Sequence record: NC_031934.1
Source of the DNA: Escherichia phage MX01
Reading direction: 5' to 3' (one strand)
DNA length: 64,000 nucleotides
The position numbers and the translations under genes are program-made. Shown piece after piece: positions 1 to 33,492 of the stretch. Within the stretch, counting starts at the first letter, position 1, and the number at the start of each line of letters is the position of its first letter. Under the pieces are notes generated by a model. That model made no database searches. It worked only from the letters and a program-made list of their open reading frames with translations, and was not told the DNA's origin.

Positions 1-619
1 GGCGCCCTGCTAATGCCACCGCTTCATGGATAGAGTCATGGTCTAGCGTATAAATGGTATCATTAAAGAATGATGATTTGTTTACATCCAATTTAGGATG
101 GGAATAGCTCAACGTTTCTTTTTGACGTTGCAGCATAATTTCCTGGAGCTCTTCGTTCAGGGTGATACCTTTATTACGAAGGTATTTGATGTGGGACATA
201 GTTTTCAGGAAGAAAGGATTATTCTTCAGGAAACGATGAGAGGTTTTGATAGCCAGACAGATATCAGGCGTAGCCCAATAGAAACCTGTAAGACGGTCCT
301 TTTTAATATGATTTTCAGCATATTTCAGGAGACGATAGCTTGAGGTGTAGTCTTCATCTTGGAGCTCACCGGTAATTTCTCGTACATTAGTCAGGGCACG
401 GACGATATAAGCTTCGAAATAGGTTTCTTTACCGTTATGCATACATTTGAAAGCCTGAACATCAGGATTGTCAACGTGTACATGAGCACCGAACATACGT
501 GCTTTAAAGTGGTTCCATGAGCCTTGGTCGGCAATGAAATCCCAATCAGAATTTTCGATATGCTTACTTTCAATCAGACCTGCGTGGTGCAGTGCACGAG
601 AACCAATAACTAACATCAT
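1..619 (-). CDS. hypothetical protein, 3' end beyond window edge; possible nucleotidyltransferase fold
   Basis: Minus-strand frame opens at ATG 617-619 and runs off position 1 without a stop; N-terminus MMLVIGSRAL...DWDFI resembles the GS...DxD pattern of Pol-beta-type nucleotidyltransferases. The track ORFs 98-343(+) and 391-573(-) are in other frames. Confidence 0.4.
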   Translation of the reverse strand, partial: MMLVIGSRALHHAGLIESKHIENSDWDFIADQGSWNHFKARMFGAHVHVDNPDVQAFKCMHNGKETYFEAYIVRALTNVREITGELQDEDYTSSYRLLKYAENHIKKDRLTGFYWATPDICLAIKTSHRFLKNNPFFLKTMSHIKYLRNKGITLNEELQEIMLQRQKETLSYSHPKLDVNKSSFFNDTIYTLDHDSIHEAVALAGR

Positions 620-638
620 AATATTTTCCTCAGTAAAC

Positions 639-878
639 TTAAATTTCAGCAACGTAATCGTTATGCAATTCCCACATATCATCAGAATTATTCTTAATGA
701 TAGGAATTATCTCATTAGAGATTTCTTCTGCATAAGGGTCGTTGATACAGTGGGCATCTTCAAAACGAACACCGTAATCAGACTTCTTATAAGCAAAGCC
801 ATAAATCTTTTTAAACTTGGCACGGGTAATGCGTACCGGTTCATTAGACTTATCGGACATCGGAGCGTAATACCACAT
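639..878 (-). CDS. hypothetical small protein
   Basis: 79-aa ORF; ATG 876-878 preceded by GAGGAGAAC RBS inside the conserved leader cassette. Confidence 0.55.
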   Translation of the reverse strand: MWYYAPMSDKSNEPVRITRAKFKKIYGFAYKKSDYGVRFEDAHCINDPYAEEISNEIIPIIKNNSDDMWELHNDYVAEI

Positions 879-905
879 ATGTTCTCCTCATGTTTGTGTA
901 GGGTA

Positions 906-935
906 ATAGTAACACGTATTTTTAGAGTTGTACAT
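906..935 (-). promoter_or_regulatory. early-type promoter (TGnTACTAT -10, degenerate -35) with conserved leader
   Basis: Minus-strand reading ATGTACAA-N-TGTTACTATTACCCTACACAAACATGAGGAGAAC-ATG; same cassette as at 56468-56497. Confidence 0.4.
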
Positions 936-1251
936 CACTTCTGCAATATTCTAAAAATAATTTATCGTTGTCTACCGTATCCCAACGACGCCAAGATGGA
1001 TTCCAGACCAGAGCGTTGTCACCACAATCATTGAGCTTAAAATGGTCGTAGTACATAGCTATACGTCTAGTTTCGTCACCAGAGAATCCCAGTATAGGCT
1101 CACCATGGGTGTGATACATATGATGGTGCATTGAGAGGTCGCATTTGTAAAACATCTCACGTTTACCGCGAACGAACAAGAAAGCTTGCCCATTCATATA
1201 GAATTCTTTATCTGTTTTCAAAAGATATTTGAATACTGAATCTTTATGCAT
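922..1251 (-). CDS. hypothetical protein with His-rich motif (MHHHMYHTHG)
   Basis: Track ORF 922-1272 uses a non-ATG first codon; internal ATG at 1249-1251 has a GGAGG RBS. Confidence 0.5.
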   Translation of the reverse strand: MHKDSVFKYLLKTDKEFYMNGQAFLFVRGKREMFYKCDLSMHHHMYHTHGEPILGFSGDETRRIAMYYDHFKLNDCGDNALVWNPSWRRWDTVDNDKLFLEYCRSDVQL

Positions 1252-1281
1252 AAGTCCTCCTACCACATCCATGTGGTTAAA

Positions 1282-1509
1282 TTATTTTCCTAACGAAATA
1301 CGAGTAGGTTTTTTACCGAAATAGTCTTCATAAGAACCATCTAAACGACCTGCTTTAGACCGACAATATGAATCGTACTTTTTGTAATAAGTCATCTCAG
1401 TATTATAACGCGGGTGTCTATCAGCCATAATAATACTTAACGGCCAACCTTTGGCATAATCGCGAAGACCATTTATTTTACGAATGTATCTTTTCTTTAA
1501 TTTTAGCAT
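1282..1509 (-). CDS. hypothetical basic small protein
   Basis: 75-aa ORF; ATG overlaps upstream stop (ATGCTAA), suggesting translational coupling. Confidence 0.5.
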   Translation of the reverse strand: MLKLKKRYIRKINGLRDYAKGWPLSIIMADRHPRYNTEMTYYKKYDSYCRSKAGRLDGSYEDYFGKKPTRISLGK

Positions 1510-1727
1510 GAGCTCGGATACCAGATTTTACCATCGGCCTGAGCAACGAAGGTGCGTCCAGCTTCTTCGCCATAACACGAGCTATTCAGCCAATCTTCGA
1601 GACGAACTTCACCGTCATAATCGTCGAGCTCAACACCAAAACTTTGAGCAGAAGCCATATCTTTTACTTTCTTATACAGTGCAGCCAGTTCAAGTGCAGC
1701 TTTTTCTAATTCATTAATATCAGACAT
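1503..1727 (-). CDS. small acidic protein, W-x-S-S-C C-terminal family member 1
   Basis: 74 aa; RBS AAGGTGA; C-terminus ...DGKIWYPSSC. Confidence 0.6.
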   Translation of the reverse strand: MSDINELEKAALELAALYKKVKDMASAQSFGVELDDYDGEVRLEDWLNSSCYGEEAGRTFVAQADGKIWYPSSC

Positions 1728-1738
1728 TTTTTATCACC

Positions 1739-1951
1739 TTAGCAAGACATAGAGGATGTAAACCAGAAACCTTCACCTTCCGGAATACCGTAGTCATCAC
1801 GGACCCATTCGTAATCATCATATTCCGGGTTCTTTGGAGAAATGTATTCTCCACGACCAGAAACACGGAACTCTTCACCCGTTTCGTCAGCCACGGCCTG
1901 GCCTTTACGTACTAATTCGCGGATTTGTTTTTCAATTTCATCAATAGTCAT
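1739..1951 (-). CDS. small acidic protein, W-x-S-S-x-x-C family member 2
   Basis: 70 aa; RBS AAGGAAA; C-terminus ...GEGFWFTSSMSC. Confidence 0.6.
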   Translation of the reverse strand: MTIDEIEKQIRELVRKGQAVADETGEEFRVSGRGEYISPKNPEYDDYEWVRDDYGIPEGEGFWFTSSMSC

Positions 1952-1960
1952 TTTATTTCC

Positions 1961-2242
1961 TTAACATTCAGAAGAAGAGGACACCCATCCACCATTTTCT
2001 AGGCTGGTAGTGTAATCATGTTGGTTTACAATAGCGTACTGAGCTTCACCGTATTCTTCCCAGTGGGCAAGGTCGGCTTTCAAGGCGCCAGGAGAATAAT
2101 AGTCACCGCCCATACCGCGAGCAGGGTATATATTAAAATGAGTCTCATATTTGTTTGCAATTTCCTCAGCACGACGAATAGCTTTATGGATATCATTTAC
2201 TGCTTCAGCCAGCTCTTTATTTTTACGGCAATCATTCATCAT
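1961..2242 (-). CDS. small acidic protein, W-x-S-S-x-x-C family member 3
   Basis: 93 aa; RBS AAGGAAA; C-terminus ...ENGGWVSSSSEC; shares IANKY..F and GDYYSPG motifs with member 4. Confidence 0.6.
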   Translation of the reverse strand: MMNDCRKNKELAEAVNDIHKAIRRAEEIANKYETHFNIYPARGMGGDYYSPGALKADLAHWEEYGEAQYAIVNQHDYTTSLENGGWVSSSSEC

Positions 2243-2251
2243 AGCGTTTCC

Positions 2252-2542
2252 TTAGCACATTGCTGAAGAGGAGACCCAAGCACCAACTGTAACGACGCCG
2301 TTTTCAACTTCACCGCCGTTGTTTTCAATTTCATCTTTAAACCACTGGGAGCATTCATAGCCGATAGGATAATATGTACGTCCTGAACCATAATCACCGG
2401 TACCGAATTGGATACCATACTTATCGGCAATAGCTTCACATTCATGTTCGATGGTATTCGCTTTATTCAGAAGAGCATAGATAGCCTTTTCTGCAGATTT
2501 CTCGTCATTGTGTTCCGGGATTTCGATTTCAATTTTATTCAT
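2252..2542 (-). CDS. small acidic protein, W-x-S-S-x-x-C family member 4
   Basis: 96 aa; C-terminus ...VGAWVSSSAMC; start overlaps upstream stop (ATGA). Confidence 0.6.
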   Translation of the reverse strand: MNKIEIEIPEHNDEKSAEKAIYALLNKANTIEHECEAIADKYGIQFGTGDYGSGRTYYPIGYECSQWFKDEIENNGGEVENGVVTVGAWVSSSAMC

Positions 2543-2892
2543 GATTTACATTCCTTAATAAAGGTTTCAAGGTCATTACGTTTAGTTTGTTTTACATACT
2601 CATTATAATTAGCCATAGCTAAAGCATATCTCTTTTTACGTGGCTTGTTTATTTTATTAGTTTGGGCAATATCAAAGACCCATGGGATAAAAAATCCTAT
2701 TAAAGCCGGAACCCAAATCCATGCAAGGCTCATATCTTCAAACGGATGGCGAGGCATACCATTAATAATCCCACCGACAAGAAATCCAATTATCCCTGCA
2801 GTCATACTAGTAGCAATGCCGAGGAATAAGGAAATAGCTATATCATAATCTGCTAATGCGTAACCAGGGTCGGTTTTACTAGGCTTATGCAT
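2539..2892 (-). CDS. small membrane protein (two predicted TM helices)
   Basis: Track ORF 2539-3066 overlaps the upstream gene; internal ATG 2890-2892 has an AGAGG RBS and sits just after the upstream stop; hydrophobic stretches LFLGIATSMTAGIIGFLVGGII and LAWIWVPALIGFFIPWVF. Confidence 0.5.
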   Translation of the reverse strand: MHKPSKTDPGYALADYDIAISLFLGIATSMTAGIIGFLVGGIINGMPRHPFEDMSLAWIWVPALIGFFIPWVFDIAQTNKINKPRKKRYALAMANYNEYVKQTKRNDLETFIKECKS

Positions 2893-3421
2893 TTTGAACC
2901 TCTTTAGCGTATTCGCGGCATTCAGCAATAAAACGATTAAGCTTCCGTTGTTGTTTTCGAATCTCTGATGTATACTCATTAGCCAAAATAATAAGCTCGT
3001 CTTTATCGTAATTTTTAATATCCGAATAACTCGGGCGGCGGTCGACCATACCAAAGTGGTCACCATTTTCTAACATCAAATAGCATACTAAATGGTAATC
3101 ATCGTCAGCATCAACAAGCTGTTTACAATCACTTGGTTCATTTAAAGCGTATACTGAATAGCATAATCCAGCGAATTCCACTCGTTGAATACCTAGATTT
3201 AAGTCAATAATTTCTAAAGCTTCTGCAAAAGAAAGGTCCTCAGCTAAAGCAAAGATAAAAGGTAATTTGGTAGTATCGCCACGGCTAGATGTTCTGCTTA
3301 AGAAATCGTTTGAATAGCCTAGGTCTTGGCGAATTCTATAAAGAACTGAATTGGTTTCATGGGAAAGACCACTATTTTTAAACCAATCAATATTTGATAT
3401 AAGGTTATCATATAAACTCAT
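2885..3421 (-). CDS. hypothetical protein
   Basis: 178-aa ORF; ATG 3419-3421 with GGAGGAGAGGAG RBS region. Confidence 0.55.
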   Translation of the reverse strand: MSLYDNLISNIDWFKNSGLSHETNSVLYRIRQDLGYSNDFLSRTSSRGDTTKLPFIFALAEDLSFAEALEIIDLNLGIQRVEFAGLCYSVYALNEPSDCKQLVDADDDYHLVCYLMLENGDHFGMVDRRPSYSDIKNYDKDELIILANEYTSEIRKQQRKLNRFIAECREYAKEVQNA

Positions 3422-3444
3422 AATATTCTCCTCTCCTCCAAATA

Positions 3445-3462
3445 GGGAGACCGAAGTCTCCC
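3445..3462 (-). terminator. intergenic stem-loop GGGAGAC-UUCG-GUCUCCC
   Basis: 18-nt hairpin identical (reverse orientation) to the gene 23 terminator hairpin at 41579-41596; lies between two minus-strand genes. Confidence 0.35.
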
Positions 3463-3469
3463 GGTAACA

Positions 3470-4063
3470 TTACTTAAGTGAATTAATGTAGTCTTCGATA
3501 TCAGCAGAAGTCGTATCCATTCCAACTTGTGGGCCTTTAAACGTTTCTACACGCAGTAGGGTGTCTTCAATATCAATCTTAGTCAGTGCAGCGATTTCAA
3601 CAACATCATCGGCAGTAGCAATACCAAGGGCAGCCATATTACGAGTTTCACGGATGTACTCGAGCTTAACAGCCAGTTCCTGACGAGAGTCATCAAGTTC
3701 CTTAACCTTCAGTTTAATTTCATTACGCATTTCGATATAATCATCGGCTTTCTTACGAAGCTGAGTAGCTGTACGACGATAAAGGAGACCGAGTTTAGCA
3801 TGTACCTGGACATCAGAGCCTTCGGCAATCAGTTTACGAATTTCACGTTCTTTAGAAGCAGCGAGCTGGTCTTTTTCATTAGCCAAAGCACGAATACGTT
3901 TTTCTTCATTCACAGACTTAACATGAGCCGTCTGGAGTTCAGTGATTTTATCAATCAGGGTAGAAGCAGCTTTGGTGTATTGGTCTTCGATTGACAGGTT
4001 CTGAGCCATCGCGGTACCCAGTTTAGAACGGATGAATTCAACGATTTTCTTTAAAGTGTTCAT
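3470..4063 (-). CDS. coiled-coil-rich hypothetical protein
   Basis: 197-aa ORF, heptad-like charged repeats throughout; RBS GAAGGAAA. Confidence 0.55.
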
Positions 4064-4105
4064 AGTATTTCCTTCAGTTGATTAAGATTTATAATCCATG
4101 AGGAC

Positions 4106-4135
4106 ATTATACCCTGTCCTCTGAGGTTTGTAAAC
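4106..4135 (-). promoter_or_regulatory. sigma70-type promoter GTTTACA-N18-TATAAT
   Basis: Minus-strand reading GTTTACAAACCTCAGAGGACAGGGTATAAT upstream of the 4063 start. Confidence 0.4.
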
Positions 4136-4138
4136 ATT

Positions 4139-4537
4139 TTATTTCATTTTTGCGAGGCAAATTTCATTGGCTTCCCATTGAGCTTGCTTAATAATAGCTT
4201 TGGATACAGGAGCCCTTTGGCCATAAGTTTTTGACGTTGAGAGAACAATACATTTGTTTGCCTCATTATGCCATCCCCATGATTTTTCGCCATGAGTACC
4301 TTTAACTACAGCAGACACCTCAACAGAGCAACCACCATCAGAAATCTTGGTTTCGACAACCCATTCATTTCTCTCAGCAGCTTCAATTTCTAATCTAGTT
4401 TTTTCTTCATACATCGCGGCCCAATCAGTTTTTGCCAAGTTGAAAGTAAGAGCTTTCTCTAGTTCTTTGGCATATTTTTGTTGTTCAGGTGTTAATGAAT
4501 TATACAACTCTTGCATTTCTTTATCTTCGATATTCAT
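4139..4537 (-). CDS. hypothetical protein
   Basis: 132-aa ORF; RBS GAGGAGAAC before ATG 4535-4537. Confidence 0.55.
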   Translation of the reverse strand: MNIEDKEMQELYNSLTPEQQKYAKELEKALTFNLAKTDWAAMYEEKTRLEIEAAERNEWVVETKISDGGCSVEVSAVVKGTHGEKSWGWHNEANKCIVLSTSKTYGQRAPVSKAIIKQAQWEANEICLAKMK

Positions 4538-4562
4538 TATGTTCTCCTCAAATTATGGGCTC

Positions 4563-4592
4563 ATAATATCTTAATCATGAGCCCATGTAAAC
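4563..4592 (-). promoter_or_regulatory. sigma70-type promoter GTTTACA-N-TATTAT embedded in a 10-bp inverted repeat
   Basis: Minus-strand reading GTTTACATGGGCTCATGATTAAGATATTAT; inverted repeat ATGGGCTCAT (4555-4564) / ATGAGCCCAT (4577-4586). Confidence 0.4.
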
Positions 4593-4595
4593 GTT

Positions 4596-4859
4596 TTATT
4601 TCATATTATTGAAATAATTTTCTGCATCAAAATCATTACCATGGTAAACTTTGGTAGACGATTTGGCGTAACCTTCAGCTGAGAACATATTAATCACAAC
4701 TTTAATTGTATACCACTGTCCATCTTCATTACCCATTACTGCATAGGTTTCATACACCGGGTGTTCAGGACCGATAACTTTAATATCGTTAACAGTAGCA
4801 CCAAATTCTTCAGGGACGCATTTCATAAAGAAATTAAACACTTCACCATAATTATCCAT
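4596..4859 (-). CDS. hypothetical protein
   Basis: Track ORF starts at GTG 4872-4874; ATG 4857-4859 with GAAGGAGAG RBS preferred. Confidence 0.5.
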   Translation of the reverse strand: MDNYGEVFNFFMKCVPEEFGATVNDIKVIGPEHPVYETYAVMGNEDGQWYTIKVVINMFSAEGYAKSSTKVYHGNDFDAENYFNNMK

Positions 4860-4894
4860 TTTACTCTCCTTCACACTGTTGTTTTGATAGGTCT

Positions 4895-4923
4895 ATAGTA
4901 TCATGTTCTACGAAAGAGTAAAC
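4895..4923 (-). promoter_or_regulatory. early-type promoter GTTTAC-N17-TGaTACTAT
   Basis: Minus-strand reading GTTTACTCTTTCGTAGAACATGATACTATAGACCTATCAAAAC. Confidence 0.45.
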
Positions 4924-4945
4924 ATCTTTTTTAAACTTTTTAGAA

Positions 4946-4976
4946 ACAAAAAAAGGCCCAACCTTTCGGAAGGGCC
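4946..4976 (-). terminator. intrinsic terminator (hairpin GGCCC...GGGCC followed by U-run on the minus strand), copy 1 of 3
   Basis: aaaaaaaaGGCCCAACCTTTCGGAAGGGCC; identical to copies at 5572-5599 and 48035-48063. Confidence 0.6.
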
Positions 4977-4981
4977 TAGAA

Positions 4982-5536
4982 TCAGTTCCTGTAGAACCGG
5001 AATGGGTTTATGTGGAAGGCTAACATAGCCTTAGGGATTTTACGAGACAAAAGACTCTTAAGTTTCCAACCACAGTATACACGAAGGTAAAAGGTAATCC
5101 CACCTACTTTAAGATACGGAACTGAAGCAAAGACTCCCCATGCTTCGTCATTCCACATCCATAACCATCCATGATGAGCTTTATCAGGAGAACCGGATTC
5201 AACGTCAGGATTACCACGATAATGGAATTCTGAGCTACAATCGCGTCCAAGTTTATGGTAAGCAAAGTTATAAGCTTTATTTCGCCACAGCCAAGCTACT
5301 CTCTGGAGATAAACACCGCCAGGCATTTTCCTGATTTTAGCCCAACGTTTAATATGGCCTTTGTCACCGTCAATTGGATTATCGTATGTCATCATCCAAT
5401 CAAAGCCATAAGGCAATTTACCGGTCTTTTTATTATGAAAAGGGACTACAAAAGGTGCAAGGATAACAGCCAGAACCATAGAGATAAAATCTAGAGGGAC
5501 CAACAGTACCCAACTCAAATATTTTAAAAGTTTCAT
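4982..5536 (-). CDS. hypothetical Trp-rich protein with N-terminal transmembrane segment
   Basis: 184-aa ORF; N-terminal hydrophobic stretch LSWVLLVPLDFISMVLAVILAPFVVPF; AGGAAA RBS; late promoter upstream. Confidence 0.55.
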   Translation of the reverse strand: MKLLKYLSWVLLVPLDFISMVLAVILAPFVVPFHNKKTGKLPYGFDWMMTYDNPIDGDKGHIKRWAKIRKMPGGVYLQRVAWLWRNKAYNFAYHKLGRDCSSEFHYRGNPDVESGSPDKAHHGWLWMWNDEAWGVFASVPYLKVGGITFYLRVYCGWKLKSLLSRKIPKAMLAFHINPFRFYRN

Positions 5537-5562
5537 ATTATTTCCTAAGTTAGTTTACTACA

Positions 5563-5570
5563 TATTTATA
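5563..5570 (-). promoter_or_regulatory. T4-type late promoter TATAAATA
   Basis: Plus-strand tatttata = TATAAATA on the minus strand, 26 nt upstream of ATG 5536. Confidence 0.5.
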
Positions 5571-5571
5571 C

Positions 5572-5599
5572 AAAAAAGGCCCAACCTTTCGGAAGGGCC
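5572..5599 (-). terminator. intrinsic terminator, copy 2 of 3
   Basis: aaaaaaGGCCCAACCTTTCGGAAGGGCC; ends the tRNA/stable-RNA transcription unit. Confidence 0.6.
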
Positions 5600-5835
5600 T
5601 TTAACCTAGGGTAACCTTGTCGGGGTTCCACCTGCTAGGCAAGTGTTCGGTGCGCCGTTTCTGCTGTGATATAAGGGGACATTAACGAATCGTAAAGATT
5701 TATTAATGCCGGTCCTTAAACAGGGAACATCAGTCCGACGACTTACCGGTAGCGACCCGGTTTCTTGTTTGTTGCGCCGGTGAATGCTGGTAATCAGTCT
5801 TCATACGACGGCTTGACTATATAATAGTCTTCATT
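5600..5835 (-). ncRNA. ORF-free structured region downstream of tRNA-Arg; candidate small stable RNA(s)
   Basis: About 235 nt with no ORF, GC-rich inverted repeats (e.g. CCGGTAGCGACCCGG), between tRNA-Arg and a terminator; T4 encodes stable RNAs beside its tRNA cluster. Confidence 0.25.
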
Positions 5836-5910
5836 TGGTATCCCGCCCTGGGATCGAACCAGGACCGCAAACTTAGAAGGATCGTATGCTATCCATTACA
5901 CCAGCGGGAC
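5836..5910 (-). tRNA. tRNA-Arg (anticodon TCT)
   Basis: Minus-strand reading GTCCCGCTGGTGTAATGGATAGCATACGATCCTTCTAAGTTTGCGGTCCTGGTTCGATCCCAGGGCGGGATACCA; cloverleaf with TTCGATC T-loop, anticodon loop CTTCTAA, encoded CCA. Confidence 0.85.
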
Positions 5911-5915
5911 ATAGT

Positions 5916-5992
5916 TGGTGACCCGGACCAGATTTGAACTGGTAACCTTTCCCTTATGAGGGGACTGCTGCTAACCATTGAGCTACGGGGCC
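5916..5992 (-). tRNA. tRNA with CAT anticodon (Met, or Ile via lysidine)
   Basis: Minus-strand reading GGCCCCGTAGCTCAATGGTTAGCAGCAGTCCCCTCATAAGGGAAAGGTTACCAGTTCAAATCTGGTCCGGGTCACCA; T-arm ACCAG-TTCAAAT-CTGGT, anticodon loop CTCATAA; one acceptor-stem mismatch. Confidence 0.7.
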
Positions 5993-24197: not shown

Positions 24198-25723
24198 TGT
24201 CAACAAACACACTAAAACACATTAGTGATAAATCGGAATTCAAATCATTCGACCCTACTGGGTCGAATTTCCCGCCTGATATTACTAATGTTCAAGAAGC
24301 ATTGGCCACTATTTCATTAATCGGCGTCACAGGTAATGTTCCTTCAGCCACAGAAACATCCCAAGGTATTATTCGTCTGGCCACAACACAAGAAGTAATG
24401 GATGGATTGGATGCTTATAGTGCAGTGACCCCAGCAACTTTAAAAGCCCGTTTAGATATTCCTACTCAGGCAACAGAAACTTATGTAGGTATCACCCGTT
24501 ACGCTACTAACGCTGAAGCCATTGCAGGCACAGAGCCCCAGGCTGCAATCGTAGCAACCTCTTTGAAAGCGGTAATGGATTATACATTTGAGAACCGTTT
24601 ATCAACAGAGAACGCCACAGGCGTTATCAAGATTTCAACTACACCTGCTGCATTAGCTGGTACCGATGATACCACAGCGATGACCCCACTTAAAGTATCG
24701 CAAGCAATTGGTGCAGCGACAGCGGCATTACCGGTTTATTCTACGGCAACGACTACAAATGAAGGTCTAGTTCGTTTAGCGACTAATGCCGAAGTTGGTA
24801 ATGGAAATCTTTCTGTAGGTATCGCTATTTCTCCAGCAGGATTGGCCACATTAACTTCCACCGAAGAACGAAGCGGTATTATTAAACTCGCCGGTTGGGA
24901 TATGGTATCTAATGGCACCGACCACACCGCCGCTGTTACACCTGCTTCTTTGTTAGCTCGTACAGGTAATACCGGACGTATTGGGTTGGTTCGATTATCT
25001 ACTACAGTAGGTCAAGGTGATGGTAATACGGCACTGGCTTATAATGCCAACGTTATTTCTACTTCAGGTGGTGAAATATGGGGTACTTTAAACGTTAATG
25101 GCGCATTACGTCGTAATGGTGTTGATGTTGTTACCCACGACCAATTATCAGATAGTGTTCCGGTCGGTACTATTTGTATGTGGGGCGGCAATGAAGGTAA
25201 TATCCCTGGCAAATGGCGTGCTTGTGTAGGTGGGACTTACACTGGTGGTGCATATTTAAATGCTGTTGGTGGACGTTGGGGATGGTGGGGTGCTATTCCA
25301 GATTTCCGTGGATTATATCCTCGTGGCGCTAATATGGTTGGTGGATATTCTGAAGGTGAAGTTAACCCACATATTGCTGGTAACCGAGGACAAGACGGTA
25401 AAGGTAAGGCCCGTTTAGGCAACGGTGTTGGTTCGTTCCCACAATCTTCTGTTCAAGCCCAAGCGTTACGTTACCATAAACACGCCGGCGGTTTTGGTGA
25501 ACATGATAACTATGGCGCTTTTGGCAACACAGCTAACTCCGGATATGTTGGCACTCGTAAAGGCCTTGACTGGGATAACCGTAGTTATTATACCAACGAA
25601 GGTTTTGAGACCACCGATCCTTGGAACCGTGATGGACATACCACATTGAATAGTGAAGGTCTTATTGCCAACGAAACACGTCCATGGACAATGTCCGTTC
25701 TTTTTATTATTAAAGTAGAATAA
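24197..25723 (+). CDS. 12: gp12 short tail fiber
   Basis: 508 aa with repetitive Gly/Thr/Ala-rich fibre sequence; position after gene 11. Confidence 0.85.
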   Translation: MSTNTLKHISDKSEFKSFDPTGSNFPPDITNVQEALATISLIGVTGNVPSATETSQGIIRLATTQEVMDGLDAYSAVTPATLKARLDIPTQATETYVGITRYATNAEAIAGTEPQAAIVATSLKAVMDYTFENRLSTENATGVIKISTTPAALAGTDDTTAMTPLKVSQAIGAATAALPVYSTATTTNEGLVRLATNAEVGNGNLSVGIAISPAGLATLTSTEERSGIIKLAGWDMVSNGTDHTAAVTPASLLARTGNTGRIGLVRLSTTVGQGDGNTALAYNANVISTSGGEIWGTLNVNGALRRNGVDVVTHDQLSDSVPVGTICMWGGNEGNIPGKWRACVGGTYTGGAYLNAVGGRWGWWGAIPDFRGLYPRGANMVGGYSEGEVNPHIAGNRGQDGKGKARLGNGVGSFPQSSVQAQALRYHKHAGGFGEHDNYGAFGNTANSGYVGTRKGLDWDNRSYYTNEGFETTDPWNRDGHTTLNSEGLIANETRPWTMSVLFIIKVE

Positions 25724-25732
25724 GGGTAAAAA

Positions 25733-27895
25733 ATGATTAACAAATTGGAACTTAGTGAGTTACCATTTGTTGACGGCGTACCTGATGCTCCTCAAAAGCG
25801 TATCCAATGGATACGCGAGGGTGATTGTATGTCTGCAGCAAAAACAAAATACGGCAATGAAGGTAATTTGAACGCTGCTGCTTTAGGAGTTCAGAAAAAC
25901 GTTGAAGCTCTTGATGCGAATGATTTGAAAACCGCAGATAAAGTTAACGAACTGGTAGAAAACGTTAATAATATCAATGATGCCTTAGAAATGGCTACGG
26001 ATATTTCCGTCATCCAACAAATTGAGAAAAACCGTGTTGATATCGTAGAGCTTAAGAGAGTAGAAGGCGAAACCACTACTGGGCTAAACAATTTAACCAT
26101 AAATTTAGACCACCTAAAAGAAGACGTTGGTTACCATGACCCTTTACAAGACGGCCCATATTTAACTTTACGTGAAAATATTGTTCTTCTTAAAACCGAA
26201 ATAGGTCATTATGAAAACCAGGATATAAATGGCAATCCATTGCCTCCTGGTGAAACCAGCGAAGCCACTGGTATGAAACGTCGCATCATTGATAATACCA
26301 CTCAATTGGTCGACCATCGTCTTCGCATTGATACCCTTGAAAGGAATTATGAAGATTCTGACGTCGGGCAACTAGGTATTAAATTAAATGAAATTCGTGC
26401 TGAATTAGGTCCTCATTCCGATACGGTAGGTAAACAACAGGCTTATACCCGAATTTCTGTATTAGAAACGGCTGCAATTAATTTTAATACATCTATCGAC
26501 GAAATTAAGGCTGATATTGATTTCTCCGGTATGCCTATAAAGGACCGAGTAACTACTTTAGAAAGCAAAACTCTTACCCTAGAAAATTCAGTCAACGTTG
26601 ATTTAAAACCTCGTGTAACATCAATTGAAACCCAAATAGGTTCTGAATCAACTCCTACTTCTATTAATGGACGTTTAAGCGGTCTTCGTACTGATGTAAA
26701 TGACCTTAAAACCATAGTAGGTGTTAGTTCAAGTGATGGCTTACGTTTCCAAGTTACTGATATCAACCGCCGTTTAGGTAGTGAAGTATCTCCGGCAGCC
26801 GGGACCATTAATAAGCGTTTAAATGACGTTATTATCCAAGCAAACCAATCTACTTCATCTATCCAGGATATTCAAGTAGAAATTGGAAATAACCAATCTG
26901 GTATTAAGGGTACTTTACTTAAACTCACCAATAAGGTTGATGGGACAAACCCTAACGGTGCTACTGTAGAAGAACGTGGTCTTATTAATGCGGTTACTTC
27001 TTTAGAAACCCAGATGTTAGGTAAGTTGAATGAGGCCCCTTCCGATGGTAAGCTTTATGCTCGTCGTAATGCTACATGGACCGAAGTTATTAATAACTCT
27101 ACTGAGATAGAATCTGTTAAAGCCGATTTGGTTGTTACCGACGGTAAAGTAACGGCCCTGACTTCTAGAGTTGACACTAACGATACCTCAATTTCTTCTC
27201 TTGATACACGTACCGGAGCTTTAAACACTTCGGTTGGTGAGATTAAAGCAGATATCGTTACTATAAAGGCTAAAGACCTTGAACAGGACGGTCGTTTAAC
27301 AGCACTTGAATCTAGTGATGTTACTGTTAATGGAAAAATATCGGCACTTGAATCTAAAACCGATACCACCGATTCTGATGTTACCGCTTTGGCCTTAGAT
27401 GTGAGTTCTATAGAATCACAATTAATTCCTATTAAAGCTGATATAACTAAGAACAAAGGCGATATAGTTACTTTAACCGGACGAGTAGCTGCTAATGAAG
27501 GTGAAATTGCCGATATTAAATTAGACACCGCTAAAATAGCTCCTTTGGCTACTCGAGTCACTACTGCTGAAGGTAAAATTACCACCTTAGAAACAGGTTT
27601 AGCTGCTGTTAAAGTTGAATCCGATAAAGTTGCAGGAATCAATACCCGTTTAGGTACGGTAGAAGGTAAAGTTGGTACTCTTGAAACAGGTTTAGCAGCG
27701 GTTAAAGTTGAATCTGATAAAGTTGCTGATTTAGGAACCCGTTTAACTGCGGCTGAAGGTAAAATCACTGCACTAGAAACTGAGTTGGCCAAACGCCCTC
27801 CTGTTGCTCCTGTAGCTGATGGGCTTCCGTATGTTCTTGTTGATAATGCATGGGTATTATTGTCCGATTTTGTGACTTTAAACTCAGCGCCATAA
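25733..27895 (+). CDS. wac: fibritin (whisker, wac), expanded coiled coil
   Basis: 720 aa of heptad coiled coil ending in a foldon-like ...GLPYVLVDNAWVLLSDFV; position between 12 and 13. Confidence 0.85.
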   Translation: MINKLELSELPFVDGVPDAPQKRIQWIREGDCMSAAKTKYGNEGNLNAAALGVQKNVEALDANDLKTADKVNELVENVNNINDALEMATDISVIQQIEKNRVDIVELKRVEGETTTGLNNLTINLDHLKEDVGYHDPLQDGPYLTLRENIVLLKTEIGHYENQDINGNPLPPGETSEATGMKRRIIDNTTQLVDHRLRIDTLERNYEDSDVGQLGIKLNEIRAELGPHSDTVGKQQAYTRISVLETAAINFNTSIDEIKADIDFSGMPIKDRVTTLESKTLTLENSVNVDLKPRVTSIETQIGSESTPTSINGRLSGLRTDVNDLKTIVGVSSSDGLRFQVTDINRRLGSEVSPAAGTINKRLNDVIIQANQSTSSIQDIQVEIGNNQSGIKGTLLKLTNKVDGTNPNGATVEERGLINAVTSLETQMLGKLNEAPSDGKLYARRNATWTEVINNSTEIESVKADLVVTDGKVTALTSRVDTNDTSISSLDTRTGALNTSVGEIKADIVTIKAKDLEQDGRLTALESSDVTVNGKISALESKTDTTDSDVTALALDVSSIESQLIPIKADITKNKGDIVTLTGRVAANEGEIADIKLDTAKIAPLATRVTTAEGKITTLETGLAAVKVESDKVAGINTRLGTVEGKVGTLETGLAAVKVESDKVADLGTRLTAAEGKITALETELAKRPPVAPVADGLPYVLVDNAWVLLSDFVTLNSAP
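27590..27726 (+). repeat. near-identical tandem DNA repeat inside wac
   Basis: 44-nt segments at 27590-27633 and 27683-27726 differ at about 4 positions; both encode TLETGLAAVKVESDKVA. Confidence 0.7.
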
Positions 27896-27896
27896 T

Positions 27897-27918
27897 AAAA
27901 GGGCTTCGGCCCTTTTTT
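27897..27918 (+). terminator. intrinsic terminator after wac
   Basis: GGGC-TTCG-GCCC followed by TTTTTT. Confidence 0.7.
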
Positions 27919-27920
27919 GC

Positions 27921-27928
27921 TATAAATA
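27921..27928 (+). promoter_or_regulatory. late promoter TATAAATA for gene 13
   Basis: Exact TATAAATA 22 nt upstream of ATG 27950. Confidence 0.6.
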
Positions 27929-27949
27929 CGGTTATTAGAGGAATAAACC

Positions 27950-28885
27950 ATGGCAAGTGAATCATATAACCCTAAGCAACTCAAGGACGCAATCCTGCGC
28001 CGCCTGGGTGCACCGATTACAAATATTGAAGTAACTACAGACCAAGTATACGATTGCATCCAGCGCGCCCTGGAGCTCTACGGTGAATATCATTATAACG
28101 GCTATAACAAAGGTTATCAGGCTTTTTATATAGGCCATGATGACGAAGAAAAATTCCGTAACGGCGTATTTGACCTTAAAGGCCGTAATATATTTGCGGT
28201 AACACAAATTTTGAGAACCAACGTAGGTTCTTTAACATCTATGGATGGCCAAGCGACTTATCCGTGGTTTACTGATTTTGTATTAGGCTTGGCCGGTATT
28301 AATGGTGGTCTTGGAACTTCTTGTAACAGCTTTGGGCCTAATGCCTTTGGTGCTGACCTTGGGTATTTTACACAATTAATGCAATATCGTTCTATGATGC
28401 AGGACCTTTTGGTTCCATTGCCTGATTATTGGTATAACGATGCTACTGAACAGTTGAAGGTAATGGGTAACTTTGTTAAAGGCGATTTTATTGTAATTGA
28501 AGTTTATACTCGCTCTTTTAATGGGGTCGATTCTATGGTAGGAAATACCGCAGGATATGGATACGCCTCTGGTGGGTGCGACGAAAATGAATGGAGCCCC
28601 GGAGCTATTTGGGATAACCCGGCTCGTCGTATTTCAGGTATGAGGGCAGGTGAAGACCTTGGTTTGCAAGATGGTTCATATAATAACCGTTGGGTCAAAG
28701 ATTATGCGACGGCATTGGTTAAAGAAGTCAATGGTAATATTTTGGCCAAACACCAAGGCATGCAACTTGCGGGTGGAACCACTGTAGATGGTATTCGATT
28801 GATTGAAGAAGCTCGTTTAGAAAAAGAACGCCTTCGCGAAGAATTAGATTTACTCGACCCACCAACACCTATTTTAATTGGATAA
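27950..28885 (+). CDS. 13: gp13 neck protein
   Basis: 311 aa; position after wac. Confidence 0.9.
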
Positions 28886-28887
28886 TT

Positions 28888-29514
28888 ATGTTTTATAGAT
28901 TATACGTGACTGAGTTTGAAACGTCGGACGGATTAAAAATTTATGGCGGTAAAAGACATTCGGATAAATCTAATCCAAAGCTGGATTCATACGTTGGCTC
29001 AGGAACGTATATTTCGAATGCTAAGAAAAAATATGGACGAAACTGTATAAAACAGGTATTATGGTCGAAAGATTTCGGTAATCCGGAATTATTAAAGGAA
29101 GCCGAAGAACTTTTAGTCGATATTCTTAAAGAAGATTTTGCTCAGTGTGTTAATTTGGTAAAAGGAGGACAAGGTGGTCCTTCTTATTACAATCCTAAAG
29201 ATAACCCTAATATAGGTAAAACCCGTTCTATAGAATCAAGAAAAAGAATGTCAGAGGCGGCAAAATCAAGAGAATGGACTGAAGAAGGGCTAAAGCGTAG
29301 AAAAGAATCTACCGCATTAATGTGGACGCGTGTGAAACACCCAGATTTTACCGGTAGTAAAAATCCTGCGGCCAGAGCAGTTAGAGTCGGAGAAATGGTA
29401 TTCTCGACAGGTAAAGAATGCGCCGAGTATTTTGGTATAGTCAAAAGCGCAGTTATTAATAGAATAAAGAATGATAAACCTAAATGGAAGGAGTGGAGTT
29501 ATGTCGACATTTGA
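28888..29514 (+). CDS. GIY-YIG family homing endonuclease (Seg-like), free-standing
   Basis: N-terminal ...[12 protein letters not shown]...YVGSG pattern as in T4 Seg proteins; NUMOD-like [11 protein letters not shown]; C-terminal helix-turn-helix-like [22 protein letters not shown]; weak RBS. Confidence 0.65.
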
Positions 29515-30274
29515 TTCTAGTCTTTTCGCCAAACTAGAAAATAATACAGGTTACGCTAATACGAACGAAGCCGAAATTCTCAATCCCTTTGTCAACTTCT
29601 ACAAGCATGAGAATACCCAAACATTGGCTGATGCTTTAGTTGCTGAGTCTATTCAAATGCGTGGTATTGAGCTTTATTATATACCACGTGAATACGTTAA
29701 TCCAGACCAGCTATTTGGCGAAGACCTTCAGAACAAATTTACTAAAGCCTGGAAATTTGCAGGTTATTTGGATTCCTTTGAAGGTTATTCCGGTGACAAT
29801 ACTTATTTCAGTAAGTTCGGTATGATGGTTAATGATGAAGTAACAATCACAATTAACCCTAACCTTTTTAAACATCAATGCAATGGCACTGAACCTGTTT
29901 CAGGTGATTTGATTTATTTCCCAATGGACAACAGCCTATTCGAAATTAACTGGGTACAACCTTACGACCCGTTCTATCAAGTGGGTGCTAACGTCCAGCG
30001 TCGAATCACTGCTACCAAGTTCATTTACAATGGTGAAGAACTTCGTCCTGAATTACAGAGAAATGAAGGTATTAATATTCCTGAGTTTAGTGAGCTTGAT
30101 TTAATGCCTGTTAAGAATATCGACGGATTGGCTGATATCTCCGACATTCAATACGAAGAGGTCAATGAGATTAACGCCGAAGCGGCTGAATTCGTACATC
30201 CTTATGTTGTAATTAATGGACGAGGAGAGGATGCTCCTCCTACAGCATTTGATGATGCTTTTTTAGATGATTAA
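29501..30274 (+). CDS. 14: gp14 neck protein
   Basis: Track ORF starts at 29471; ATG 29501 with GGAGG RBS preferred; overlaps the endonuclease 3' end by 14 nt. Confidence 0.85.
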
Positions 30275-30281
30275 ATAATAC

Positions 30282-30304
30282 ATGGCGCATGGTGCGCCAT
30301 TTTG
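30282..30304 (+). terminator. hairpin after gene 14 (weak U tract)
   Basis: ATGGCGCA-TGG-TGCGCCAT followed by TTTGAG. Confidence 0.45.
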
Positions 30305-30315
30305 AGAGGTGATTT

Positions 30316-31178
30316 ATTTTTGGCCACTGGTACAATTCATCGCTGCGTCGCTATATTGTTTTGATGGGTGATTTATTTTCCCATGTCCAAGTAGCGCGTC
30401 AAAGAGAAGATACAGGACTTAAATTTATTAAGGTCCCTATTACGTATGCTTCTAAAGAAAGATTTATGGCAAATTTGGGTAAATGGACGGCCGTTCAAAA
30501 TATTCCAAATCCTAATATGTCTCCTAAAGAACGAGCTGAACAAAAGGCTAAAGTGGAAACAGTTCTTCCACGTATGAACCTTCAAATGGTTGATATGCTT
30601 TATAACTCACAATACAAAACAGCTCTTCAGAACAGAACACAAATTCAATTTGAGAATGGTGACCCGAGAAAACGAGTCAGCCAATATTCTCCTACTCCGG
30701 TTAAAATGATTTTCGAACTGGGTATTTACACTAGAACCCAAGATGATATGTTCCAAATTGTGGAACAGATTATGCCTTATTTCCAACCTCACTTTAATAC
30801 AACAATCACCGAACTCTATACAAACGAGATTAAATTTGACCGTGATATTCGTATTGTGTTCCAGTCTATTGCAATGGACGAACAATTGGAAGGTGATACC
30901 ACTTCTCGTCGTCGCTTAGAATGGTCTATGATGTTTGAGGTTAACGGATGGTTATATCCTCCTGTGAAGGAAATGGAAGGCGAAATTAAAACCATTTATC
31001 TTGATTTCTTTGCTAATTCAAAGGAACTCGCTCCTGAAGGTAATTTCGAATCGGTTGATAGCGAAGTGGTTCCGAGAGGTGTAGAACAAACAGAATGGGA
31101 TGGAAGTTCCGTTCAAACATATTCACAAGATATTCCAGTGCCTGTCGAGCCAGCGCCTCCAGCACCAAGGAGAAACCC

Positions 31179-31182
<4 letters not shown>
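30316..31182 (+). CDS. 15: gp15 tail sheath stabilizer / completion protein, apparent ATT start
   Basis: Track ORF begins at TTG 30361, but 15 upstream in-frame codons ([15 protein letters not shown]) align with the recalled T4 gp15 N-terminus MFGYFYNSSFRRYAT; the only candidate initiator is ATT 30316, 6 nt after GAGAGG. Confidence 0.75.

Positions 31183-33492
<2,310 letters not shown>

Follow-up and report, generated by a model that had tools for sequence, protein, structure and literature searches.

Several free-standing endonuclease genes of phage T4, namely segC, segF and segG, are described as cassettes without a promoter of their own, which are translated by re-initiation and within which the signals of the downstream gene are embedded, and free-standing endonucleases cut at a distance of hundreds to thousands of base pairs (bp) from their own genes, the characterised Seg enzymes usually at hundreds of bp (PMC2988022). 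The segF gene lies between soc and gene 56, and a passage of the same review that cites Belle et al. 2002 presents it as an instance of "intronless homing" (PMC2988022). I-TevI, encoded within the td intron of T4, consists of an N-terminal GIY-YIG nuclease domain, a linker and a C-terminal helix-turn-helix (HTH) domain, and possesses a zinc finger. Enzymes of the I-TevI-type HTH-plus-linker plan act within ~25 bp of their insertion site. Traits that define the T4 Seg group include a site-specific double-strand cut in the allele lacking the endonuclease, leaving 2-nt 3' overhangs, and favoured inheritance or marker exclusion when infections are mixed. Here we analyse a gene that shares features with both systems, a 208-amino-acid (aa) open reading frame (ORF) between neck genes 13 and 14 in a stretch of 64,000 nucleotides (nt) from Escherichia phage MX01 (NC_031934.1; the whole stretch is termed the window below). 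An initial annotation made from the sequence alone had read this ORF as a free-standing, Seg-like GIY-YIG homing endonuclease gene overlapping the start of gene 14, and our results support that interpretation. The gene is an ordinary member of the Seg/GIY-YIG family, which is already annotated at the 13/14 site in related phages, and sequence comparisons make it highly probable that it entered the Dhakavirus 13/14 junction by double-strand-break repair from a carrier phage during co-infection.

The ORF is present on the + strand in a six-frame ORF list, and its product can be divided into the following parts:

28888..29514, + strand: endonuclease gene, ATG start, 208 aa (six-frame ORF list)
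28888..29178, + strand: GIY-YIG catalytic domain, SegF-like, aa 1-97, with Y6, Y19-G-G, E73 and N89 conserved
29197..29253, + strand: NUMOD3 motif, aa 104-122 (Pfam), within a helical, basic, low-confidence linker at aa 98-160
29353..29502, + strand: I-TevI-type HTH DNA-binding domain, aa 156-205

The N-terminal domain (aa 2-97) shares 40% identity with T4 SegF (E 2e-16) in blastp comparisons with the seg genes taken from the T4 record, SegF being the closest characterised relative of this domain, and the protein also matches SegD (9e-10), SegC (3e-8), SegB (9e-8), SegA (1e-6) and SegE (6e-6); no blastp match was found between SegG and the endonuclease protein. The PHROG 314 family ("homing endonuclease") matches the protein at 9e-33, and the NCBIfam model TIGR01453 ("group I intron endonuclease") does so at 1e-8, yet under its family cut-off. 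A profile search of 1.84 billion representative sequences returned 7370 relatives at E<=1e-3, and across an alignment of 49 distant relatives the residues Y6, Y19, G21, Y35, G37, G39, E73, N89 and G94 are invariant. The two tyrosine motifs that characterise the family take the form F-Y-R-L-Y(6) and K-I-Y(19)-G-G, with Y6, Y19 and G21 invariant in 14 close homologues as well, and hhalign pairs Y19, E73 and N89 with Y17, E75 and N90 of I-TevI. Moreover, an AlphaFold2 model built with 14 homologues is confident for the N-terminal domain (predicted local distance difference test score, pLDDT, ~80-90 at aa 1-90), the characteristic alpha/beta fold of the GIY-YIG catalytic domain is present, and the best fold match of the nuclease domain in a structure comparison of the model is 1ln0. 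Homology to SegF, invariant residues and placement on I-TevI thus all agree with the GIY-YIG N-terminus claimed initially, albeit with no direct match to a Pfam GIY-YIG model. On this evidence aa 1-97 are a Seg-subfamily GIY-YIG nuclease domain, SegF-like and predicted to cleave DNA.

The remainder of the protein resembles I-TevI rather than SegF, whose C-terminal half is unrelated to it. The C-terminal DNA-binding helix proposed initially proves to be an HTH of the I-TevI type, detected by Pfam I-TevI_DNA-bd (PF20987; aa 156-205, E 3e-5), and a profile of the close-homologue family, run by hmmsearch against PDB sequences, has the I-TevI DNA-binding domain 1i3j as its sole match (8e-6); with the broader 49-sequence profile, even the 1i3j signal is gone from the PDB search. 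The HTH is confidently modelled by AlphaFold2, while the linker is poorly defined. The initial annotation had spoken of NUMOD-like repeats, of which NUMOD3 itself is present, but as a single copy with a marginal match (20.8 bits vs the 20.4 cut-off), a second copy not being detected in a Pfam search of the protein. There is no cysteine cluster in the linker that could form a zinc finger, the only cysteines of the protein being C53, C87 and C178. Consistent with this layout, the blastp match between I-TevI and the window protein is confined to the C-terminal HTH, and the catalytic domains of the two are ~15% identical; the window gene also differs from I-TevI in being neither intron-encoded nor furnished with a zinc finger. 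As judged from these matches, the protein is a Seg-subfamily GIY-YIG domain joined through a NUMOD3 linker to an I-TevI-type HTH.

The likeness to SegF extends beyond the nuclease domain, as segF is likewise a promoter-less cassette in a polycistronic message that overlaps a neighbouring gene (PMC2988022), and it shares with the window gene a sporadic distribution and co-conversion of flanking sequence. However, SegF targets the gene 56 region, whereas the window gene is inserted at the late structural genes 13 and 14. Furthermore, segF overlaps its upstream gene by 11 bp, while the window gene starts 2 nt past the upstream stop codon and shares 14 nt with the downstream gene. The latter arrangement involves the following features:

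27950..28885, + strand: gene 13 (neck protein, head-tail adaptor), 311 aa, assigned by PHROG 211 and the annotated gp13 of relatives
29501..30274, + strand: gene 14 (neck protein, head closure), 257 aa, intact, assigned by Pfam T4_neck-protein
29501..29514, + strand: 14-nt overlap of the endonuclease gene and gene 14, reading Y-V-D-I-stop in the former and M-S-T-F-D in the latter

The gene 13 protein matches PHROG 211 ("head-tail adaptor Ad2") and aligns with the gp13 annotated in relatives, and the protein read from ATG 29501 is recognised by Pfam T4_neck-protein (gp14) at E 8e-107. The ATG of the endonuclease gene follows the gene 13 TAA, and its end at 29514 lies 14 nt inside gene 14, the same overlap as had been noted before; the junction is also tight in T4, as stated initially, T4 reading TAA-T-ATG with a gap of 1 nt. 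No Rfam family matched in 27800-30500, hence no group I intron, and for this reason the endonuclease gene, lying between the gene 13 stop and the gene 14 start, is free-standing.

The window belongs to the Dhakaviruses (JS98-like phages), its genes 13-14 matching LHE83 at 98% and Bp7 at 97% identity by megablast. In essentially all of the ~50 close records the homologous 13-14 span measures 1709-1712 bp, the empty sites of ~48 Dhakavirus records spanning 1712 bp, compared with 2325 bp in the window, and alignment across both junctions defines an insert of 613 bp (28888-29500) between the gene 13 TAA-TT and the gene 14 ATG, with an ATG common to both ends. Relatives with an empty site, which are 91-98% identical to the window in the flanks, read ...TTGGATAATT-ATG(gene 14), that is, gene 13 TAA-TT-ATG, and their junction can be given as TTGGATAATT|ATGGCTACTTTCGATTCGAGTTTATT or, as also written, TTGGATAATT|ATGGCTACTTTCGATTCGAG. 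Because the insert runs from ATG to ATG, the endonuclease ATG takes the native start position of gene 14. An insertion this exact, which brings a ribosome-binding site (RBS) for gene 14 with it, accords with the initial view that late-gene expression should not be disrupted. The GC content of the insert (0.373 vs 0.399 for the window) gives no sign of foreign origin.

The two ends of the insert look different in some other phages. In mogra (1492-1503 and 2114-2125 of the extracted stretch) and in the homologues of the SP18/VR26 type, the endonuclease begins M-A-T-Y, as does gp14 of empty-site Mosigviruses, and the displaced gene 14 begins M-S-T-Y; judging by these starts, the insert seems to be flanked on each side by a copy of the first four gene 14 codons. 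Unlike at these mogra-type loci, the sequence common to both ends of the window insert is the ATG alone.

Far from being universal at this site, the gene is missing from nearly all Dhakaviruses, and vB_EcoM_005 is the only other phage with an identical protein, which its record lists as hypothetical. The best non-identical relative (70% identity) is encoded between gp13 and gp14 on a 175-kb metagenomic contig, and homologues of 55-62% identity occupy the same junction in Mosigvirus (mogra, F2 and others), Gaprivervirus (SP18, VR26), Krischvirus (G5211, G37-3) and many Klebsiella T4-like phages. Within Mosigvirus, the homologue is carried by 13 of ~150 close records. The gene is sporadic and not universal, and its distribution therefore fits the expectation for a mobile endonuclease gene. 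Existing records already list several of the junction homologues as homing, GIY-YIG or "segC" endonucleases, under a variety of names: SP18 "segC homing endonuclease", mogra and F2 "putative endonuclease", RPN187 "GIY-YIG endonuclease", G5211 "putative group I intron endonuclease" and Klebsiella phage Earwig "homing endonuclease". A more distant occupant of the 13/14 site, the "SegC" of Phi1, has 32% identity, as opposed to the 55-62% of the others. The label "segC" is a misnomer for the junction genes (SP18, 1492-2127, and Phi1, 1453-2037, of the extracted stretches), because T4 segC lies between 5.1 and 5.3, encodes 140 aa and is ~33% identical. The homologues resemble the window gene in their position, in overlapping gene 14 by 8 or 14 nt and in bearing a K-W-x-x-W-x-Y motif that contains the RBS, and the window gene stands out among them as a divergent allele, found in a genus whose members nearly always have an empty site.

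This distribution bears on the notion that the protein is no nuclease at all, but a site-specific DNA-binding or regulatory protein that acts through its I-TevI-type HTH, adjusting the expression of the late neck genes, for example. Its strongest direct database matches are indeed to DNA-binding modules, and the I-TevI DNA-binding domain doubles as an operator-binding repressor, according to the title of PDB entry 1t2t. Nevertheless, we regard such a role as extremely improbable, given the clear homology to the proven nucleases SegF, SegB and SegC, the conservation of the GIY-YIG residues, the fold match to 1ln0, and a sporadic occurrence that is typical of a selfish element and not of a regulator of essential genes.

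Two signals are relevant to how the gene is expressed:

27921..27928, + strand: T4-type late promoter motif TATAAATA, 22 nt upstream of the gene 13 ATG, identified by the T4 late promoter consensus
29488..29493, + strand: gene 14 Shine-Dalgarno sequence AAGGAG with a 7-nt spacer and a second GGAG after it, formed by Lys-Glu codons of the endonuclease C-terminal motif

The motif at 27921 is the sole late motif on the + strand between 11515 and 32983, with no copy within the endonuclease gene or immediately ahead of it and the following one at 32983, and it is presumed to be the promoter of a 13-endonuclease-14-15 transcript. A scan for sigma-70 promoters and terminators across 25500-31500 gave background levels. 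The start context of the endonuclease gene (GGA, 5 nt, stop-TT-ATG) is identical to that of gene 14 in empty-site phages, such that the gene presumably inherits the coupling of gene 14 to gene 13. The earlier remark that the endonuclease has no obvious RBS is thus roughly right, in that a GGA lies 5 nt upstream, yet the region is the native initiation region of gene 14. Similarly, the gene 14 RBS does lie inside the endonuclease gene, but it does not literally read GGAGG as had been stated. In the window, the C-terminal motif is K-W-K-E-W-S-Y, the codons of which supply both the AAGGAG and the ATG of gene 14, and in all homologues, including an HNH gene discussed below, the K-W-x-x-W-x-Y codons hold a purine-rich Shine-Dalgarno sequence and the gene 14 ATG. 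Taken as a whole, the layout matches the account of segC, segF and segG in the review cited above (PMC2988022).

A candidate hairpin at the gene 14 start (29486-29527; -15.5 kcal/mol), in which the RBS would pair with codons 5-9 and which includes some of the substitutions private to the window, was rejected, since its z-score was -1.64 and 15 of 200 shuffled sequences equalled it. The same region of five homologous loci gave z-scores between -1.1 and +0.9, with common structure limited to a short stem around the AUG, and folding of the endonuclease start region revealed no structure (z +1.77).

The flanks of the insert differ sharply in their divergence from empty-site relatives. Compared with LHE83, only 2 of the 936 nt of gene 13 are mismatched; gene 14 shows 21 mismatches in its first 90 nt, and the 380 nt beyond are free of them. 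We defined private positions as those where none of six endonuclease-free Dhakaviruses (91-98% identical overall) shares the base of the window in an alignment of genes 13 and 14, and found 9 such positions among 1711, seven of which (29504, 29506, 29509, 29512, 29518, 29522 and 29524) fall in a short patch at the start of gene 14 and two, 28444 and 30175, outside it; a further gene 13 SNP lies at 28813. The patch is followed by a second divergent stretch:

29504..29524, + strand: endonuclease-linked substitution patch, 7 of the 9 private positions, gene 14 nt 4-24
29533..29590, + strand: second stretch divergent from LHE83 and Bp7, shared with endonuclease-free PSD2002; mosaic, not strictly endonuclease-linked

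None of 200,000 simulations of random placement matched the observed clustering of private positions. The stretch that holds the patch is nearly invariant among empty-site phages (1.1 pairwise differences per 32 nt), and the changes are synonymous save for Ala2Ser in gene 14. A similar pattern occurs in Mosigvirus, where mogra differs from the empty-site phages F27 and NRG-P0074 by 16 mismatches in gene 14 nt 4-51 and by ~1-2% scattered elsewhere. On these comparisons, the patch directly 3' of the insertion is the signature of a candidate donor-derived conversion tract, a candidate immunised target, or both. Since both genes are otherwise nearly identical between occupied and empty loci, any target that discriminates between the two would be limited to the junction and patch, or would lie outside genes 13 and 14.

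PSD2002 itself (OK335775; 2501-2600 of the extracted stretch, equivalent to window 29501-29600) is of the empty-site type over gene 14 nt 1-32 and identical to the window allele over nt 33-90. This mosaic points either to recombination by which PSD2002 escaped the gene or to precise loss of the gene from its lineage.

An alternative explanation for these flanks is that the endonuclease is active but cuts far from its insertion, by hundreds of bp as do SegF, SegG and SegE, in which case 29504-29590 would represent a conversion tract or mosaicism and not an immunised target. Such distant cutting is the habit of free-standing endonucleases (PMC2988022), the stretch shared with PSD2002 accords with it, and further clusters of mismatches to LHE83 exist at 26899-27067, 29971-30004, 30133-30187 and 30304-30345. 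However, a distant site within genes 13 and 14 would persist in the carrier genome, the only private positions there being 28444 and 30175; the independent Mosigvirus pair of occupied and empty loci shows the same sharp divergence at gene 14 nt 4-51; and the I-TevI-type HTH-plus-linker plan is one that acts close to the insertion site. We consequently view a distant cut as possible but rather unlikely.

PSD2002 and the position of the gene 14 signals also bear on the proposal that the gene is a decaying or domesticated remnant, with neither a working nuclease nor mobility, that is kept because its 3' end holds the RBS and start context of an essential gene. The presence of these signals within the endonuclease coding sequence would make simple deletions lethal, some T4 homing endonucleases are defunct (I-TevIII, for example; PMC2790892), and PSD2002 may stand for a lineage in which the gene was lost or escaped and part of the flank was retained. 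Against this, the ORF is not truncated and has the same sequence in two phages, and Y6, Y19, G21, E73 and N89 are intact and invariant down to homologues of ~25% identity. Moreover, the whole protein and not its 3' end alone is conserved at 55-70% across genera, which indicates purifying selection on the nuclease domain, and the remnant proposal accordingly appears improbable.

We thus return to homing by a functional endonuclease as the preferred explanation, for which the following sequence of events can be envisaged. Late transcription would start from TATAAATA upstream of gene 13, within the 13-14-15 message, and the endonuclease would be translated at a low level by re-initiation or coupling after gene 13. 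In a mixed infection, the HTH may then bind the conserved empty junction TTGGATAATT|ATGGCTACTTTCGATTCGAGTTTATT of endonuclease-free phages, where the tethered GIY-YIG domain would cut nearby. Repair off the carrier genome would transfer the gene and, with it, the neighbouring first codons of gene 14, amounting to intronless homing with marker exclusion. The carrier genome would be immune, because the insert splits the site and seven positions are altered.

Several observations weigh against this scenario. No Pfam GIY-YIG model (PF01541, PF19835) matches the protein directly at E<=1. The homologue at the same junction in Phi1 passes Pfam SegE_GIY-YIG PF19835 (29.5 bits vs a 25-bit cut-off), and among the 49 distant homologues 6 match PF19835 (E<=0.01) and 1 matches PF01541, but the link to Pfam GIY-YIG is only transitive, because it is these homologues and not the window protein that match. 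The hhalign match to I-TevI is weak overall (E 0.014, probability 3%), and an equivalent of the catalytic R27 of I-TevI was not identified, a gap lying opposite the R27 helix in that alignment; R23, H24 and K48, conserved within the Seg group, are candidates for this role. A Foldseek search with the model found no significant match for the N-terminal domain, supporting the DNA-binding domain alone. Additionally, four of the seven private substitutions (29504-29512) fall within the endonuclease's own 3' coding overlap and may simply be cassette sequence, and part of the divergent patch is ordinary mosaicism, because 29533-29590 is common to the endonuclease-free PSD2002. A target adjacent to the insert is a prediction and not the norm, because Seg enzymes usually cut far off (PMC2988022). 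Finally, a search of full-text literature yielded no cleavage or homing experiment on this gene or on any 13/14-junction homologue, and a paper on nucleases at recombination boundaries makes no mention of the 13/14 site.

The junction has also received an endonuclease gene of another kind. In vB_EcoM_FB (MT682711; 2439-3083 of the extracted stretch) and ESCO10, a gene for a 214-aa HNH protein occupies the identical 13/14 insertion point.

The HNH protein is 39% identical to MobE over its aa 1-177, and Pfam detects HNH and NUMOD3 within it. Homology to the window protein covers the C-terminal ~100 aa of the HNH protein (30% identity over 106 aa, E 2e-11), with the NUMOD3 and HTH tail shared, and the last ~60 nt of the HNH and window genes, which include the K-W-x-x-W-x-Y motif and the gene 14 RBS, are 70-77% identical, compared with ~35-45% elsewhere. 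The two genes thus differ in their nuclease module, MobE-like HNH in one and GIY-YIG in the other, and this comparison suggests that nuclease modules have been exchanged in place on a common site-specifying tail. We tentatively extend this to the proposal, which we would put at somewhat below even chances, that the 13/14 junction is a shared landing site where the tail sets the target and the cut adjoins the enzyme's own insertion site, unlike in the characterised Seg enzymes. If true, either catalytic head could be swapped onto the tail by recombination between competing endonuclease genes, and the enzymes would behave like intron endonucleases without an intron.

The record of the second phage with the identical protein, vB_EcoM_005 (MK295203), is scrambled in this region (1-5936 of the extracted stretch). 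In gene 13, a block of 230 bp is misplaced, a 97-nt gene 14 5' end of the empty type is followed by a repeated gene 13 3' end and then by the endonuclease gene, and ~100 nt of gene 14 are absent. This arrangement suggests a misassembly, possibly of a mixed population with and without the endonuclease gene, and because of the scrambling the record is unfit as a clean comparison.

The same record has an additional ORF of 195 aa between genes 14 and 15 (3946-4533 of the extracted stretch), with weak hints of HNH and NUMOD3 (E ~0.03). The window lacks this ORF, and its 89-nt gene 14/15 spacer (30275-30363) contains mismatches and indels relative to LHE83 at 30304-30345, such that the spacer is possibly a second landing site for endonuclease genes. 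Also within the spacer is a near-perfect 19-nt palindrome, ATGGCGCA-C/T-...TGCGCCAT, at 30282-30300, which was detected as a terminator-like hairpin on the minus strand; a + strand transcript would fold likewise. On the other side of gene 13, a fibritin (wac) homologue of 720 aa (25733-27895) with internal repeats ("GKITALE/LETGLAAVKVESDKVA") includes the cluster of mismatches to LHE83 at 26899-27067.

These findings leave the current understanding of homing endonucleases unchanged. With regard to annotation, the "hypothetical protein" of vB_EcoM_005 would be better labelled a Seg-like GIY-YIG homing endonuclease, and the label "segC" used for some of its relatives is misleading. The locus offers a clean natural example of a selfish endonuclease gene that resides harmlessly between two essential, translationally linked structural genes, borrowing the start position of the downstream gene and repaying it with an RBS held in its own conserved C-terminal codons. 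Because the endonuclease-linked substitutions are so tightly clustered, the target is predicted to be short (~30-40 bp). Together with the HNH gene at the same site, the 13/14 junction may provide a simple system for the study of module swapping and of competition between homing endonucleases.

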